Positions 3,630 to 16,350 of a stretch of DNA of 28,536 nucleotides are shown here, in pieces. Source of the DNA: a virus. The stretch's first letter is position 1. Every line of letters begins with the position of its first letter. Under the pieces are notes generated by a model. It saw only the letters and a program-made list of their open reading frames with translations, was not told where the DNA came from and ran no database searches. Where the stretch lies: the UHGV virus genome UHGV-1508137. The stretch is one strand, 5' to 3'. A program made the position numbers and the translations under genes.

Positions 3630-4300
3630 TGCTCCCCAAATACAAAACCAATTTCAGCCAGTGCCTCGTCCATTTTTTCGATGAACTCCGGCACCATCTC
3701 GTCAAAACTCGCCATGTACTTTTCATTCCGCTCAATCACGACATAATGCAGGCCTTCACGCTTCATGCGCGGGTCATAGTTGGCAAAGTACCAGGCATCT
3801 TTTCGCGTCACCCACATGCTGTACTGCACCTGGGCCATGTAAGCCGACTTTATGGCCTCGAAACCACCGAGCCGGAACTTCATGAAATCCCGGGAGGTAA
3901 ACGGGCATTTCAGCTCAAGGCCATTGCCGTCACTGCATAAACCATCGGGAGAGCAGGCGGTGCGCATACTTTCGTCGCGATAGATGATCGGGGATTCAGT
4001 AACATTCACGCCGGAAGTGAACTCAAAGAGGGCTCTGGCGTCGTTCTCGTACTGTTTTCCCCAGGCCAGCGCCTTAGCGTTAACTTCCGGAGCCACACCG
4101 GTGCAAACCTCGGCAAGCAGGGTGTGTAAGTAGGACATTTTCATGTCAGGCCATTTCTTTCCGGAGCGGGGTTTTGCTATCACATTGTGAACTTCTGAAG
4201 CGGTGATGACGCCGAGCCGTAATTTGTGCCACGCATCATCCCCCTGTTCGACAGCTCTCACGTCGATCCCGGTACGCTGCAGGATAATGTCCGGTGTCAT
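3620..4300 (-). CDS. exo: lambda exonuclease (Red-alpha), 226 aa
   Basis: [43 protein letters not shown]... matches lambda Exo; 4-nt overlap with bet. Confidence 0.97.
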
Positions 4301-5082
4301 GCTGCCACCTTCTGCTCAGTGGCTTTCTGTTTCAGGAATCCAAGAGCTTTCACTGCTTCGGCCTGTGTCAGTTCTGACGATGCTCGAATGTCGCGGCGAA
4401 ATATCTGGGAACAGAGCGGCAATAAGTCGTCATCCCATGTTTTATCCAGGGCGATCAGCAGAGTGTTAATCTCCTGCATGGTTTCATCGTTAACCGGAGT
4501 GATGTCGCGTTCCGGCTGACGTTCTGCAGTGTATGCGGTATTTTCGACAATGCGCTCGGCTTCATCCTTGTCATAGATACCCGCAAATCCGAAGGCCAGA
4601 CGGGCACACTGAATCATGGCTTTATGCCGTAACATCCGTTTGGGATGCGACTGCCACGGCCCCGTGATTTCTCTGCCTTCGCGGGTTTTGAATGGTTCGC
4701 GGCGGCATTCATCCATCCATTCGGTAACGCAGATCGGATGATTGCGGTCCTTGCGGTAAATCCGGCATGTACAGGATTCATTGTCCTGCTCAAAGTCCAT
4801 GCCATCAAACTGCTGGTTTTCATTGATGATGCGGGACCAGCCATCAACGCCCACCACCGGAACGATGCCGTTCTGCTTGTCAGGAAAGGCGTAAATTTCT
4901 TTCGTCCACGGATTAAGGCCGTACTGGTTGGCGACGATCAGCAATGCGATGAACTGCGCATCGCTGGCATCGCCTTTAAATGCCGTCTGGCGAAGAGTGG
5001 TGATCAGTTCCTGTGGGTCGACAGAATCCATGCCGACTCGTTCAGCCAGCTTCCCAGCCAGCGTTGCGAGTGCTGTACTCAT
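4297..5082 (-). CDS. bet: Red-beta single-strand annealing protein, 261 aa
   Basis: [66 protein letters not shown]... matches lambda Bet. Confidence 0.97.
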
Positions 5083-5087
5083 CCGTT

Positions 5088-5504
5088 TTATACCTCTGAA
5101 TCAATATCAACCTGGTGGTGAGCAATGGTTTCAACCATGTACCGGATGTGTTCTGCCATGCGCTCCTGAAACTCAACATCGTCATCAAACGCACGGGTAA
5201 TGGCTTTTTTGCTGGCCCCGTGGCGTTGCAAATGATCGATGCATAGCGATTCAAACAGGTGCTGGGGCAGGCCTTTTTCCATGTCGTCTGCCAGTTCTGC
5301 CTCTTTCTCTTCACGGGCGATCTGCTGGTAGTGACGCGCCCAGCTCTGAGCCTCAAGACGATCCTGAATGTAATAAGCGTTCATGGCTGAACTCCTGAAA
5401 TAGCTGTGAAAATATCGCCCGCGAAATGCCAGGCTGATTAGGAAAACAGGAAAGGGGGTTAGTGAATGCTTTTGCTTGATCTCAGTTTCAGCATTAATAT
5501 CCAT
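5088..5504 (-). CDS. gam: Gam, RecBCD inhibitor, 138 aa
   Basis: [24 protein letters not shown]...[21 protein letters not shown] matches lambda Gam including internal Met of the short form. Confidence 0.95.
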
Positions 5505-5602
5505 TTTTTATAAGCGTCGACGGCTTCACGAAACATCTTTTCATCGCCAATAAAAGTGGCGATAGTGAATTTAGTCTGGATAGCCATAAGTGTTTGATCC
5601 AT
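5459..5602 (-). CDS. kil: Kil (FtsZ-targeting host killing protein), 47 aa
   Basis: [47 protein letters not shown] equals lambda Kil; the 89-codon frame in the ORF track is an upstream extension. Confidence 0.85.
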
Positions 5603-5735
5603 TCTTTGGGACTCCTGGCTGATTAAGTATGTCGATAAGGCGTTTCCATCCGTCACGTAATTTACGGGTGATTCGTTCAAGTAAAGATTCGGAAGGGCAG
5701 CCAGCAACAGGCCACCCTGCAATGGCATATTGCAT
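5571..5735 (-). CDS. cIII: CIII (FtsH/HflB inhibitor), 54 aa
   Basis: Hand translation of minus strand: [54 protein letters not shown]; overlaps kil by 32 nt as in lambda. Not in ORF track (below its length cut-off). Confidence 0.9.
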   Translation of the reverse strand: MQYAIAGWPVAGCPSESLLERITRKLRDGWKRLIDILNQPGVPKNGSNTYGYPD

Positions 5736-5807
5736 GGTGTGCTCCTTATTTATACATAACGAAAAACGCCTCGAGTGAAGCGTTATTGGTATGCGGTAAC
5801 GCCGCGC

Positions 5808-6176
5808 TCAGGCGGCTTTGATAGTCATATCATCTGGATCAAATATTCCTGATGTATCGATATCGGTAATTCTTATTCCTTCGCTACCATCCATTGGAGG
5901 CCATCCTTCCTGACCATTTCCATCATTCCAGTCGAACTCACACACAACACCATATGCATTTAAGTCGCTTGAAATTGCTATAAGCAGAGCATGTTGCGCC
6001 AGCATGATTAATACAGCATTTAATACAGAGCCGTGTTTATTGAGTCGGTATTCAGAGTCTGACCAGAAATTATTAATCTGGTGAAGTTTTTCCTCTGTCA
6101 TTACGTCATGGTCGATTTCAATTTCTATTGATGCTTTCCAGTCGTAATCAATGATGTATTTTTTGATGTTTGACAT
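5808..6176 (-). CDS. ea10: Ea10 (single-strand DNA binding protein), 122 aa
   Basis: MSNIKKYIIDYDWKASIEIEIDHDVMTEEKLHQINNFWSDSEYRLNKHGSVLNAV... matches lambda Ea10. Confidence 0.9.
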   Translation of the reverse strand: MSNIKKYIIDYDWKASIEIEIDHDVMTEEKLHQINNFWSDSEYRLNKHGSVLNAVLIMLAQHALLIAISSDLNAYGVVCEFDWNDGNGQEGWPPMDGSEGIRITDIDTSGIFDPDDMTIKAA

Positions 6177-6191
6177 CTATTCATATCCTCA

Positions 6192-6222
6192 TAGATAAAA
6201 AATCGCCCTCACACTGGAGGGC
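6192..6222 (-). terminator. intrinsic terminator (tL2-like): stem gccctc/gagggc then gattttttatc on the minus strand, just upstream of the ea10 RBS
   Basis: Hairpin plus U-tract read directly on the minus strand. Confidence 0.6.
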
Positions 6223-6358
6223 AAAGAAGATTTCCAATAATCAGAACAAGTCGGCTCCTGTTTAGTTACGAGCGACATTGCTCCGTGTATTCACTCGTTG
6301 GAATGAATACACAGTGCAGTGTTTATTCTGTTATTTATGCCAAAAATAAAGGCCACTA

Positions 6359-6456
6359 TCAGGCAGCTTTGTTGTTCTGTTTACCAAGTTCTCTGGCAAT
6401 CATTGCCGTCGTTCGTATTGCCCACACCATTGATTCTTATCAATAGTCGCAGTCAT
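6359..6456 (-). pseudogene. ral: ral remnant: N-terminal 12 codons (MTATIDKNQWCG) and C-terminal 21 codons (WAIRTTAMIARELGKQNNKAA) joined out of frame; ~100 bp internal deletion relative to 66-codon lambda ral
   Basis: Both ends translate to Ral termini in different frames; ATG frame stops after 18 codons; junction at a tgggca microhomology. Confidence 0.65.
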
Positions 6457-6578
6457 ACGGATAGTCCTGGTATTGTTCCATCACATCCTGAGGATGCTCT
6501 TCGAACTCTTCAAATTCTTCTTCCATATATCACCTTAAATAGTGGATTGCGGTAGTAAAGATTGTGCCTGTCTTTTAA

Positions 6579-7476
<898 letters not shown>

Positions 7477-7586
7477 CTGGATTCTCCTGTCAGTTAGCTT
7501 TGAGTAACGCGCCGTGATGCTTATCCCCACGGTTGCTGTCTTGCAGCTGCATTTCGCGCTACTCAAAGCTTTCTGCTTTGAATGCT

Positions 7587-7618
7587 GCCCTTCTTCAGGG
7601 CTAAATTTTTAAGAGCCT
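7587..7618 (-). promoter_or_regulatory. nutL: nutL (boxB gccctgaagaagggc and boxA-like gctcttaa on the minus strand)
   Basis: Reverse complement of 7587-7601 is the lambda boxB hairpin; boxA-like motif adjacent with one difference from the cgctctta consensus. Confidence 0.8.
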
Positions 7619-7649
7619 CACCTTCAATGGTGGTTAGTGCGTCCTGCTG

Positions 7650-7719
7650 ACGGGCTAAGTATCACCGCTAGTGGTATTTGTGTCAACACCGCTAGAGATA
7701 TTTTATCACCGCAAATGGT
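7650..7719 (-). promoter_or_regulatory. pL promoter with operators OL1 (7660-7676), OL2 (7684-7700), OL3 (7703-7719)
   Basis: Three 17-bp lambda-type operators (tatcaccgctagtggta, caacaccgctagagata, tatcaccgcaaatggtt); -35 ttgaca and -10 gatact on the minus strand. Confidence 0.9.
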
Positions 7720-7870
7720 TATCTGTATGTTTTTTATATGGATTTATTTTTTCGAGTGAGTGTATTGCCTCGGCGATGTAAGGAGAGATCAGAATTGCGT
7801 TGTTTAGTGAGTTGTATCTATTTATTTTCCAATAAATACAATTGGTTATGTGTTTTGGGGTGGGGCGATC

Positions 7871-7903: not shown

Positions 7904-8524
7904 TTAATGCTGGGGAGTGATTTTTTTGTTGTCTGTTGGCTGGGTATTTTGTGGCGGCGCTTGCAAAGTGGAAGGCTGTTGCAAAGGTGCGTGGTCTGAC
8001 TTTAAAGCTGATACCAGCCCGGGAATCGCAACTATTACAGCGATAATGACACTAAAAATGGCTAATCGTATAGAAATACCCGACTGAACACCACTAATTG
8101 CGGTATTAACCCCTGTTATTTGTCCTTGAATTCCTTCGAATCTCCCATTAATTGCTTTTAAATCGCCAGCAGCGCTATCCATTTTTCCATCGATCTTGGA
8201 CGATAGAGAGCTTATGGCCGCATTAAGTGATGCAAATTGGACATTAACGCTTTCACGAGATAGAGCCATGTCAGCCCTAATGGAAGAAGCAATAGACTCC
8301 ATCTCTGCTTTATTAGCAGCTAAGCGAGCATCAAGTTCCTCTCTGCTGATCGTTCCCACTTCTTCCTCCGTTTGTGGCGGTTTTATGTAATTATTTTGCA
8401 CCTTGGTGGGAGAATTATCAAATTCAGCCTCAAAATCGGAACCGCCAACAACCTTCAACCTCCGGCTTTCAGATATGTTGGTGTCTTGCTTTCCATGATT
8501 ATTTAAATTGCTGTCGTCACTCAT
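7904..8524 (-). CDS. hypothetical tail-anchored membrane protein, 206 aa (acidic N-terminus, long amphipathic/coiled-coil region, single C-terminal TM helix LAIFSVIIAVIVAIPGLVSAL, Pro/Gln-rich tail); second gene of the cI operon at the rexB position
   Basis: ATGA start/stop overlap with the upstream gene; AT-rich; not related to RexB as I recall it. Confidence 0.75.
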   Translation of the reverse strand: MSDDSNLNNHGKQDTNISESRRLKVVGGSDFEAEFDNSPTKVQNNYIKPPQTEEEVGTISREELDARLAANKAEMESIASSIRADMALSRESVNVQFASLNAAISSLSSKIDGKMDSAAGDLKAINGRFEGIQGQITGVNTAISGVQSGISIRLAIFSVIIAVIVAIPGLVSALKSDHAPLQQPSTLQAPPQNTQPTDNKKITPQH

Positions 8525-9005
8525 AATAGCTCTACGGTGAAAAATGATTCATTTTTATGAAGTTCATTTTTAGGGTCTTCATTATCTTGCAATCTCCCTA
8601 TAACACTATACAGCCCTTTAGCTGGGACCCTAATTTCTTTCAATGTTACTATTACCTGTCCGCCAACCCCTGTTTCAAAATGGCTATCTTTCGTATCGAT
8701 GAAAAGTGAAACTGATTCCGAAGATCCGTCAGGGAATTGAATTTCCTCACCTTTTTTTATAATTAGGTGCGCGGGGATTACCATAATACCCAAATTATAT
8801 CTTGAATTTGGTTTCAACCCGATCATACCAACCCTGAAATCAATTGATAGCCGCGCAGGAAATTCATTGCATGTAAAATTAAGCGTCGGTTGGTTGGGTT
8901 CTTCGCTGCTATCAAATGGGGTTATAAAAGATATTCTTTCTAAATTAAGTGCCATAAATTCTCCTGCATCGCTGTATGCTCTACGAGCATCTCGGCGACT
9001 TATCA

Positions 9006-9006
<1 letters not shown>
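8521..9006 (-). CDS. hypothetical soluble protein, 161 aa; first gene downstream of cI at the rexA position
   Basis: ATG overlaps the cI stop (tgATGa); AT-rich relative to cI; no TM segment; not related to RexA as I recall it. Confidence 0.75.
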
Positions 9007-9722
<716 letters not shown>

Positions 9723-12374: not shown

Positions 12375-12407
12375 AGGCCTGCTGGTAATCGCAGGCCTTT
12401 TTATTTG
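12375..12407 (+). terminator. tR2 intrinsic terminator (8-bp stem aggcctgc/gcaggcct then ttttattt)
   Basis: Hairpin and U-tract read directly between ren and ninB. Confidence 0.8.
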
Positions 12408-12422
12408 GGGGAGAGGGAAGTC

Positions 12423-12863
12423 ATGAAAAAACTAACCTTTGAAATTCGATCTCCAGCACATCAGCAAAACGCTATTCACGCGGTACAGCAAATTCTTCCA
12501 GACCCAACCAAACCAATCGTAGTAACCATTCAGGAACGCAACCGCAGCTTAGACCAGAATCGAAAGCTTTGGGCTTGCCTTGGTGACGTCTCTCGTCAGG
12601 TTGAATGGCATGGTCGCTGGCTGGATGCAGAAAGCTGGAAGTGTGTGTTTACCGCAGCATTAAAGCAGCAGGATGTTGTTCCTAACCTTGCCGGGAATGG
12701 CTTTGTGGTAATAGGCCAGTCAACCAGCAGGATGCGTGTAAACGAATTTGCGGAGCTATTAGAGCTTATACAGGCATTCGGTACAGAGCGTGGCGTTAAG
12801 TGGTCAGACGAAGCGCGACTGGCTCTCGAATGGAAAGCGCGATGGGGAGATCGGGCTGCATGA
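12423..12863 (+). CDS. ninB: NinB (Orf-family recombination mediator), 146 aa
   Basis: MKKLTFEIRSPAHQQNAIHAVQQILPDPTKPIVVTIQERNRSLDQNRKLWACLGDVSRQVEWHGRW... matches lambda NinB. Confidence 0.9.
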   Translation: MKKLTFEIRSPAHQQNAIHAVQQILPDPTKPIVVTIQERNRSLDQNRKLWACLGDVSRQVEWHGRWLDAESWKCVFTAALKQQDVVPNLAGNGFVVIGQSTSRMRVNEFAELLELIQAFGTERGVKWSDEARLALEWKARWGDRAA

Positions 12864-13387
12864 CTATCAAATCAAATACGCCAGCACACGACAAGGACTG
12901 CTGGCAAACGCCGCTTTGGCTTTTTGATGCACTGGATATTGAGTTTGGATTCTGGCTGGATTCGGCAGCGAGCGACAAAAATGCTCTGTGTGCTCACTGG
13001 CTAACTGAGGCCGACGACGCGCTCAATTCTGAGTGGGTAAGCCACGGTGCAATCTGGAATAACCCACCGTACAGCAATATCAGGCCGTGGGTGGAAAAAG
13101 CCGCTGAGCAGTGCATACAACAGCGACAGACGGTAGTTATGCTTGTGCCAGAGGATATGTCAGTCGGATGGTTCAGCAAGGCTCTGGAGAGTGTCGACGA
13201 AGTTCGCATTATCACTGATGGACGGATTAATTTTATCGAACCATCGACAGGGTTGGAGAAGAAGGGAAACAGCAAAGGCTCCATGCTGCTGATTTGGCGA
13301 CCGTTCATCAGTCCTCGACGGATGTTTACTACCGTATCCAAAGCGGCATTGATGGCGATCGGGCAGGGCGTCAGGAGGGCGGCATGA
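12860..13387 (+). CDS. phage-type DNA N6-adenine methyltransferase (Dam-like, orphan), 175 aa
   Basis: NPPY catalytic motif ([11 protein letters not shown]) and [13 protein letters not shown]-terminal motif; ATGA coupling to ninB; occupies the position of lambda ninC/ninD. Confidence 0.8.
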
Positions 13388-14610: not shown

Positions 14611-14695
14611 AGTCAGAGATAACAATCAACTAATACTGTTTCGTTGATTTTTGCTTGTAATTGGCGTTCTGGTCTGATTTTTGTGGAGTAAGTTG

Positions 14696-15079
14696 ATGCG
14701 TGATATTCAGATGGTTCTTGAGCGTTGGGGAGCGTGGGCGGCTAATAATCATGAAGATGTGACCTGGTCGTCCATTGCCGCCGGTTTTAAGGGATTAATT
14801 ACTTCAAAAGTAAAATCTCGCCCGCAATGTTGTGACGATGACGCGATGATCATTTGCGGGTGCATGGCCCGTCTGAAAAAGAACAACAGCGATTTGCACG
14901 ATTTATTAGTAGATTATTATGTAGTCGGTATGACATTCATGTCACTGGCAGGTAAGCATTGCTGCTCTGATGGTTATATCGGGAAAAGGTTACAGAAGGC
15001 TGAGGGCATAATTGAAGGGATGTTAATGGCATTAGATATCCGGTTAGAGATGGATATCGTTGTTAATAACTCTAATTAA
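14696..15079 (+). CDS. Q: late antiterminator Q, phage 82 / DLP12 QuuD type, 127 aa
   Basis: [71 protein letters not shown]... ; Cys-rich zinc-binding region; unlike lambda Q. Confidence 0.85.
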
Positions 15080-15267: not shown

Positions 15268-16350
15268 TTAGAACTGGTAAACCATACCTACAGCAACGAT
15301 ATCATCGGTAGCAACGCCAGATGCTTTCGTGAAATCGCTCTTATCAATCAGGTTGATTTTGTAGTCAACAAAAGTGGACATATTTTTGTTGAAGTAATAG
15401 GTTGCACCTACATCAACATATTCAACCAGGTCCTGATCACCCCAAACACCCAAGTCTTTTCCTTTAGAATGCAGGTAAGCAACGGATGGACGCAGGCCGA
15501 AGTCGAACTGATATTGTGCAACAGCTTCGAAGTTTTGTGCTTTGTTGGCAATATGGTTATTACCAAAAACAGTCATGTTCTGGGTTTCAGAATAGGTGGT
15601 GGCCAGATAGATGTTGTTCGCATCATATTTCAGACCAGCTGCCCATACTTCAGCATTTTGACCAGAAGCATTCAGACCGTTGTTACCGTAGATAACCTGA
15701 TTATTAGTGCGATCAGATTTAGCATAGGTTGCACCCACGCCGAATCCTTCATACTCATAAGTAGTTGAGAAACCGAAACCATCGCCATTAGCTTCAGTTA
15801 CTTCATTTCGGTCATTTTTGCCCTGATACTGAGCTGCAAAGTTCAGGCCATCAACCAGACCAAAGAAGTCGTTGTTACGATAAGTTGCAACACCTGTGGT
15901 GCGACCAGTCATGAATACATCTGTTTGGGTCCAGGTATCGCCACCGAATTCTGGCAGAACGTCAGTCCACGCACCGATGTCGTATGCTACACCGTAGTTA
16001 CGGCCGTAATCGATTGAGCCGTAGTCACCGAATTTCAGGCCTGCAAATGCAAGACGGGTTTTGTCTTTGGAGGAACCTTGAGATTCAGCGCGGTTGCCTT
16101 TGAATTCATATTCCCACTGACCGAAACCAGTCAGTTGATCGTTGATTTGGGTTTCACCTTTGAAGCCAAGACGGGCATAAGTAGTATCACCATCATCTGC
16201 ATCATTAGAGGAGAAGTAGTGCTTAGCATTAACTTTCCCGTACAGATCCAGCTTGTTACTGTCTTTATTATAAATTTCAGCTGCCTGAGCAGACATCGCC
16301 ATCAGTACTGATGCAGCTACAGCAGAAATTGCCACTGTTAATTTTTTCAT
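15268..16350 (-). CDS. nmpC: general outer-membrane porin (OmpC/OmpF/NmpC/Lc family), 360 aa with signal peptide
   Basis: [23 protein letters not shown] signal peptide, C-terminal ...VGMVYQF beta-barrel terminal Phe; synteny with DLP12 quuD-nmpC-essD. Symbol assigned by synteny only. Confidence 0.85.

Follow-up and report, generated by a model that had tools for sequence, protein, structure and literature searches.

The stretch of DNA analysed here, in the following referred to as the window, comprises 28,536 nucleotides of the UHGV virus genome UHGV-1508137. At positions 6359-6456, on its minus strand, it carries what we consider, with a probability of roughly 93%, to be a dead copy of the lambda gene ral, which suffered an internal deletion between direct repeats and represents a common, annotated pseudogene of lambdoid prophages. 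By alignment with lambda (J02459), the 98 bp of this remnant correspond to the 201 bp of ral minus 103 bp. An initial annotation, made from the sequence alone, had likewise proposed that ral is inactivated here by an internal deletion and not replaced by another gene; this is borne out by the two halves of Ral, which lie in two different frames, and by the PGAP annotation of the same allele as a frameshifted pseudogene in other genomes.

The remnant is found in its normal place within a lambda-type pL operon (4297-7566, minus strand), which includes bet (4297-5082), gam (5088-5504), kil/cIII (5459-5735), ea10 (5808-6176) and N (7153-7566). The order of this operon is N, a gene in the position of sieB, orf28, ral, ea10, cIII, kil, gam and bet. 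On the upstream side, the minus-strand orf28 (6440-6526; phrog_16060, E=3.6e-18) is an intact, acidic 28-aa ORF that overlaps the start of ral, as it does in lambda. At all loci inspected, this very acidic ORF (MEEEFEEFEEHPQDVMEQYQDYPYDCDY) is conserved alongside the ral cassette, and in one of them (L023) a 6-bp deletion in the orf28/ral overlap leaves orf28 in frame. On the downstream side, ea10 follows on the same strand; its distance to ral had been described as otherwise lambda-like, correctly so, because the stretch from the ral stop codon to ea10 is colinear with lambda. An Rfam scan of positions 5500-7800 (E<=0.1) had the lambda cIII thermoregulator (5690-5748, minus strand; RF01804, 88.5 bits), which is intact, as its sole match, and no known RNA element was detected at ral.

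Some neighbouring features deserve a mention in their own right. Between ral/orf28 and N, the opposite strand encodes a 167-aa ORF (6657-7160, plus strand; PGAP WP_001278766.1, hypothetical), which occupies the position of sieB in lambda and many of its relatives. It matches phrog_1244 (unknown function; E=5e-53), displays a C-terminal CxxC...CxxC pattern and has no match in Pfam or PADLOC; we regard it as a candidate replacement superinfection-exclusion or defence gene. Immediately downstream of a cI-like repressor (9006-9719), two overlapping minus-strand ORFs of 206 and 162 aa (7904-8524 and 8521-9009; phrog_5820 and phrog_5893, unknown function) reside at the lambda rexA/rexB position. They have no PADLOC match and only a weak, sub-threshold Pfam match, and they may constitute a prophage-expressed exclusion module. 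Lastly, just downstream of the Q antiterminator (14681-15079), the minus strand carries a gene for a 360-aa Gram-negative porin (15268-16350; PF00267, E=4e-152), which is an nmpC/ompC-like lysogenic-conversion gene.

Read from position 6456, the minus strand of the remnant starts with ATG ACT GCG ACT ATT GAT AAG AAT CAA TGG TGT GGG CAA TAC GAA CGA CGG CAA TGA. As the initial annotation had stated, the frame set by this ATG ends after 18 codons (MTATIDKNQWCGQYERRQ), with a TGA stop at 6402-6400; this N-terminal frame (6400-6456) is composed of Ral codons 1-12 (MTATIDKNQWCG), six out-of-frame codons (QYERRQ) and the stop. The C-terminal fragment (6359-6424, minus strand), which appears in a different frame of the ORF list, encodes Ral residues 46-66 (WAIRTTAMIARELGKQNNKAA) and a stop codon at 6361-6359; an incidental ATG at 6430 makes a 23-aa ORF possible in this second frame, which reads (MV)WAIRTTAMIARELGKQNNKAA. 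The same two parts, already noticed in different minus-strand frames on first inspection, were recovered by tblastn of the window with lambda Ral (translated from J02459 34087-34287: MTTTIDKNQWCGQFKRCNGCKLQSECMVKPEEMFPVMEDGKYVDKWAIRTTAMIARELGKQNNKAA): residues 1-16 match in frame -1 and residues 46-66 in frame -3, the latter with 100% identity over 21 aa, and there is no second ral copy in the window. With the Pfam profile of the Ral family (PF11058), lambda Ral aligns over the whole profile (positions 1-66, E=1.6e-48), whereas the window is matched at positions 1-16 and 46-66 only, again in separate frames (E=2e-10 for 46-66).

A functional Ral should present itself as a single unbroken ORF of about 64-66 aa, covering all 66 positions of the profile, and it should possess the cysteines C11, C17, C20 and C26, which are invariant among lambda-type and diverged ral alleles. 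The remnant contains no such ORF, and C11 is the only one of these cysteines left in it. Compared with lambda ral, it retains the same place in the pL operon and recognisable codons 1-12 and 46-66, but it lacks the central 103 bp (residues ~13-45, with C17, C20 and C26) and its frame is broken; for these reasons, no 66-aa product is possible. It further has the attributes of a pseudogene, namely ral nucleotide homology on both sides of the lesion, synteny between orf28 and ea10, a disrupted frame and, in relatives with the same lesion, signs of relaxed constraint. A different, intact gene at 6359-6456 was considered and is ruled out by the Ral halves in different frames, with no further ral copy found. 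A PDB relative of Ral, sought to gauge what the deletion removes, was not found at E<=1.

The DNA alignment with lambda, by which the initial annotation had proposed to check its reading, reveals a single gap of exactly 103 bp, from ral nt 33/41 to 135/143, and no intact gene; the remainder of the 400-bp alignment is almost identical. Both flanks of the gap, from a point upstream of orf28 as far as the beginning of ea10, are colinear with lambda at an identity of about 98-99%. Only two substitutions distinguish the ral part from lambda, and both are SNPs linked to the deletion: at 6450 (minus strand), codon 3 is changed from ACG to GCG (T3A), which among the sampled alleles occurs in deletion alleles only, and at 6436 (minus strand), codon 7 is changed from AAA to AAG, a synonymous change that also segregates in full-length alleles. 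The SNP at 6450 also turns Tyr26 of orf28 into Cys.

At the junction itself (6417-6424, minus strand), comparison with lambda and with full-length alleles identifies one retained copy of the direct repeat TGGGCAAT. In lambda, its two copies are TGGACAAT at ral nt 33-40 and TGGGCAAT at nt 136-143, which agree in 7/8 positions at a spacing of 103 bp; the consensus is the 8-bp TGGRCAAT (window 6424-6417). Some full-length alleles from IMG/VR (L045/L121 and L043) have GGG at Gly12 and therefore an exact 8-bp repeat at ral nt 33 and 136, which in L045 and L043 is the longest exact direct repeat within the CDS, with a spacing of 103. The lesion had originally been described as an approximately 100-bp deletion at a 6-bp microhomology (tgggca). 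The deletion and the short shared repeat hold, while the exact size is 103 bp and the six letters fall short of the actual homology, which is 8 bp (or 7/8), given that the repeat is perfect in some full-length alleles and matches at 7/8 in lambda.

Thus the repeat is present at both parental end-points, one copy remains in the product and the lost length equals the spacing of 103 bp. From this footprint we infer a slipped-strand or short-homology deletion, since one repeat copy was kept and the deleted length is that of the repeat spacing. In such an event, the 103-bp segment between the two TGGRCAAT copies (nt 33-40 and 136-143) would be lost and a single copy would stay behind. The loss takes away Ral residues ~13-45, including three of the four cysteines (C17, C20 and C26), and the frame shift, 103 not being a multiple of three, puts the conserved C-terminal 21 residues out of frame, so that translation from the ral ATG ends after 18 codons.

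The same junction is widespread. A 40-mer centred on it, which cannot align over the full-length allele at the E-value applied, picks up 109 places distributed over 101 of 5426 complete E. coli genomes. With a 121-bp ral probe, ral-like DNA was detected at 986 places in 875 of these 5426 genomes; the junction therefore accounts for ~11% of the ral loci in complete E. coli genomes. In IMG/VR, 33 contigs carry it, 14 with the TGGGCAAT-ACG and 19 with the TRGACAAT-ACG junction, set against 404 stretches coding for a Ral relative; exact-pattern matches that a check of the flanks exposed as chance 17-mers in unrelated contigs (4/18, 17/23 and 6/25) were dropped. Among sequenced phage isolates, the junction was found in ECP1 only, that is, in one phage (2 records) among 390 ral-matching records, and the best 40 ral matches listed are all full length.

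This distribution bears on the possibility, raised in the initial annotation, that the remnant is an assembly or sequencing artefact and that the true ral is full-length, 103 bp having dropped out through a collapse at the repeat. Local mis-assembly at short direct repeats is possible in principle, but 8 bp is much too short a repeat for an assembly to collapse on it. Furthermore, 101 independently finished E. coli genomes, ECP1 and 33 IMG/VR contigs all show the identical junction, and these copies bear linked SNPs of their own and additional decay mutations. Given the same junction in so many independent assemblies, an artefact appears extraordinarily improbable, and the matter can be settled without recourse to reads.

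The genuine deletion allele is already known, and it is real but ordinary: it is contained in RefSeq, where it is flagged as frameshifted. PGAP labels it 'antirestriction Ral family protein, frameshifted' in E. coli 5CRE51 (CA593_RS28865), O55:H7 CB9615 (G2583_RS32440) and MDR_56 (B1200_RS31290), and a frameshifted hypothetical protein in S51, while in two genomes the 23-aa C-terminal ORF is called as a protein (WP_231793225.1). In a full-text literature search, we found no paper on a recurrent ral deletion or a ral pseudogene. The backbones that harbor the allele are unrelated, with Rad52/SSB, ERF or Bet/Exo recombination modules and different repressors, and the homology among the deletion loci is confined to a cassette that extends from just upstream of orf28 to ~30-170 bp past the ral stop codon.

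Individual members of this group differ in their closeness to the window. The closest relative is the prophage of E. coli MDR_56, with 99.9% identity over 4.1 kb; its pseudogene is the identical 98-bp deletion allele, without any difference. The 5CRE51 pseudogene shares an identical 121-bp junction region, but resides in an unrelated prophage, and CB9615 and its relatives, unlike the window, exhibit the junction variant TAGACAAT and further substitutions. Escherichia phage ECP1 (KY979108 / NC_049926) matches the junction 40-mer at 100%, as in the window, but it has a different backbone and a further decayed remnant (stop codons at K60 and Q61; via IMG/VR contig L014). As ECP1 was isolated as a plaque-forming phage, the allele is compatible with a viable phage.

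For the history of the allele in this lineage, a sister prophage in Z1323CEC0018 is instructive, which carries a full-length ral (WP_000213977.1) and shows ~99.2% identity to the window along the same 4.1 kb. Between 6214 and 7064, its sole differences from the window are the 103-bp indel and the SNPs at 6436 and 6450, which sit 12 and 26 bp from the junction; the next 3.7 kb contain five SNPs only. The same SNP-plus-deletion haplotype recurs in the unrelated 5CRE51 prophage. Because in this interval the sister differs only at the indel and the two SNPs next to it, and because this haplotype is shared with 5CRE51, it is at least as probable that recombination imported a null allele already in existence as that the deletion occurred anew. 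In this lineage, the allele most likely arrived, or persisted, within a small orf28-ral cassette that is exchanged by homologous recombination.

In the ea10 region (5800-6214), 18 SNPs within 415 bp separate the window from the sister prophage, which is otherwise 99.9% identical. This cluster marks a mosaic boundary beside the remnant and would fit a recombination tract by which ea10 and the deleted ral were introduced together. The sister prophage (L130/L132; NZ_CP148405.1 765500-775500) is itself a defective remnant, in which cII is directly followed by a truncated ninG, the lysis and head genes are truncated and the whole O-P-nin region is absent. Hence, an intact ral is found in a dead prophage and a dead ral in the apparently complete prophage of the window.

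Among the deletion alleles, at least six flank haplotypes can be told apart, as can two junction types, with G or A at the polymorphic position of the repeat. Both types are the expected products of two crossover points (within TGG or within CAAT) in a lambda-type parent, while TAGACAAT and TGGGCATT are obvious post-deletion variants of the junction. Two synonymous flank polymorphisms, K7 AAA/AAG, which lies 12 bp left of the junction, and T50 ACG/ACT, 5 bp right of it, segregate in full-length as well as in deleted alleles, in all four combinations, and no substitution is common to all deletion alleles. The two junction types, the four SNP combinations and the lack of a common substitution favour recurrent deletion at the repeat, which is likely but unproven; TGGRCAAT is probably a hot spot at which this deletion recurs. 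Short-patch recombination, or a mutation of the junction (A/G) after the deletion, could give the same picture. Taken together, the junction variants and the shuffled flank polymorphisms suggest a recurrent hot spot, a spread by recombination, or both. Prophage ral is also inactivated by other routes, as seen in a diverged full-length ral on an IMG/VR contig (L048; IMGVR_UViG_2924362350_000002), where codon 9 is a nonsense codon (Q9 to stop).

One may go further and view the deletion as a selected, recurrent off-switch, with the TGGRCAAT repeat making the loss of ral frequent and this loss being favoured in prophages, e.g. if Ral brings no benefit, or a cost, where the host lacks type IA systems, or if a host defence senses it. 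In line with this idea, the two junction types, TGGGCAAT and TGGACAAT, correspond to two resolution points of a lambda-type parent, the K7 and T50 polymorphisms occur in all four combinations with the deletion, and the deletion haplotype is found here in a backbone whose sister keeps an intact ral; moreover, the ~11% of ral loci in E. coli chromosomes stand against 1 phage (2 records) in 390 isolate records. This last comparison, however, involves a collection of phage isolates that consists mostly of laboratory lambda and Stx phages. Likewise, the two junction types (A/G) may differ through point mutation after the deletion, the way in which TAGACAAT and TGGGCATT clearly arose, and the same overall pattern is expected for a neutral pseudogene in freely recombining mosaic prophages. 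We therefore consider selection for the loss of ral unlikely. Slightly less likely still is the wider proposal that the repeat pair is a natural hot spot that repeatedly disables restriction alleviation, the resulting null allele being favoured and spread by recombination; if it were true, about one in ten E. coli ral loci would be this 98-bp remnant by selection and not by drift.

What remains of the gene appears to be decaying, as other copies with the same deletion hold additional stop and missense changes. Within the surviving codons of 21 deletion alleles, we counted 14 distinct nonsynonymous changes (2 of them nonsense) versus 6 synonymous ones. The nonsynonymous changes include T3A, K7T, T50A, T51A, A52T, A55V, L58P, G59S and N63Y, and in the ECP1-type allele, read on IMG/VR contig L014, both K60 and Q61 are converted to stop codons. 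Conversely, 82 full-length loci with 27 DNA haplotypes encode an identical 66-aa protein, although this contrast between synonymous and nonsynonymous changes is indicative only, the full-length sample being the best 80 protein matches, picked by protein identity.

These changes also speak to the idea that the remnant is still functional through one or more micro-peptides, either the 18-aa N-terminal one or the 23-aa MVWAIRTTAMIARELGKQNNKAA, which would explain its persistence and spread. The C-terminal 21 residues are indeed 100% conserved in the window, two genomes have the 23-aa ORF annotated as a protein by PGAP, and the allele is frequent at ~11% of ral loci. But the ECP1-type stops at codons 60 and 61 and the missense changes T50A, T51A, A52T, A55V, L58P, G59S and N63Y fall into just this segment, three of the four conserved cysteines are absent, and the incidental ATG at 6430 is not preceded by a Shine-Dalgarno-like sequence (...actattgataagaatcaATG). 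Considering the decay of the remnant and the missing Shine-Dalgarno-like motif of the 23-aa ORF, a functional micro-peptide seems very unlikely to us. A residual peptide is formally possible, since PGAP annotates WP_231793225.1 in some genomes.

As for the physiological consequence, Ral speeds first-strand methylation by type IA restriction-modification enzymes (EcoKI family), which allows more unmodified phage to survive (review PMC12707154), while type IB and IC enzymes do not respond to it (PMC12707154, citing Zabeau 1980; Loenen & Murray 1986). With half of the protein removed, Ral should no longer be made by the phage of the window prophage, and both the alleviation of type IA (EcoKI/EcoBI-type) restriction and the stimulated de novo methylation would be lost. 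Unmodified phage released from this prophage should be somewhat more sensitive to EcoKI/EcoBI-type restriction. The gene itself is non-essential. A second small prophage protein reported to alleviate EcoKI restriction, RalR/Lar of the Rac prophage, is only ~24% identical to lambda Ral, is regarded as unrelated to it and is described as a DNase toxin with an sRNA antitoxin (PMC4041452); it is not relevant to the locus at 6359-6456.

The initial annotation had deemed the loss of ral notable in view of an orphan adenine methyltransferase elsewhere in the prophage. This enzyme is present, as an ORF of 195 aa (12800-13387, plus strand; phrog_111) that overlaps NinB (12405-12863) and matches the Dam family PF05869 at E=9e-65. 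It is a Dam-family N6-adenine methyltransferase of the nin region, as encoded by phages, and no partner endonuclease was seen among the ORFs scanned. The suggested connection gained no support, as we found no functional tie between the loss of ral and this methyltransferase; the sister prophage, the one close backbone to keep an intact ral, is uninformative in this respect, because the whole O-P-nin region is absent there.

For the prophage in the window, the lesion consequently means that an accessory anti-restriction function would be gone and nothing more, with the phage otherwise unaffected. Its wider interest lies at the level of the population, where the same 103-bp deletion is found at ~11% of ral loci of finished E. 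coli genomes, in many unrelated backbones and with two junction variants. In this sense, ral may serve as a natural example of a repeat-mediated deletion hot spot, or of a null allele that spreads by mosaic recombination.
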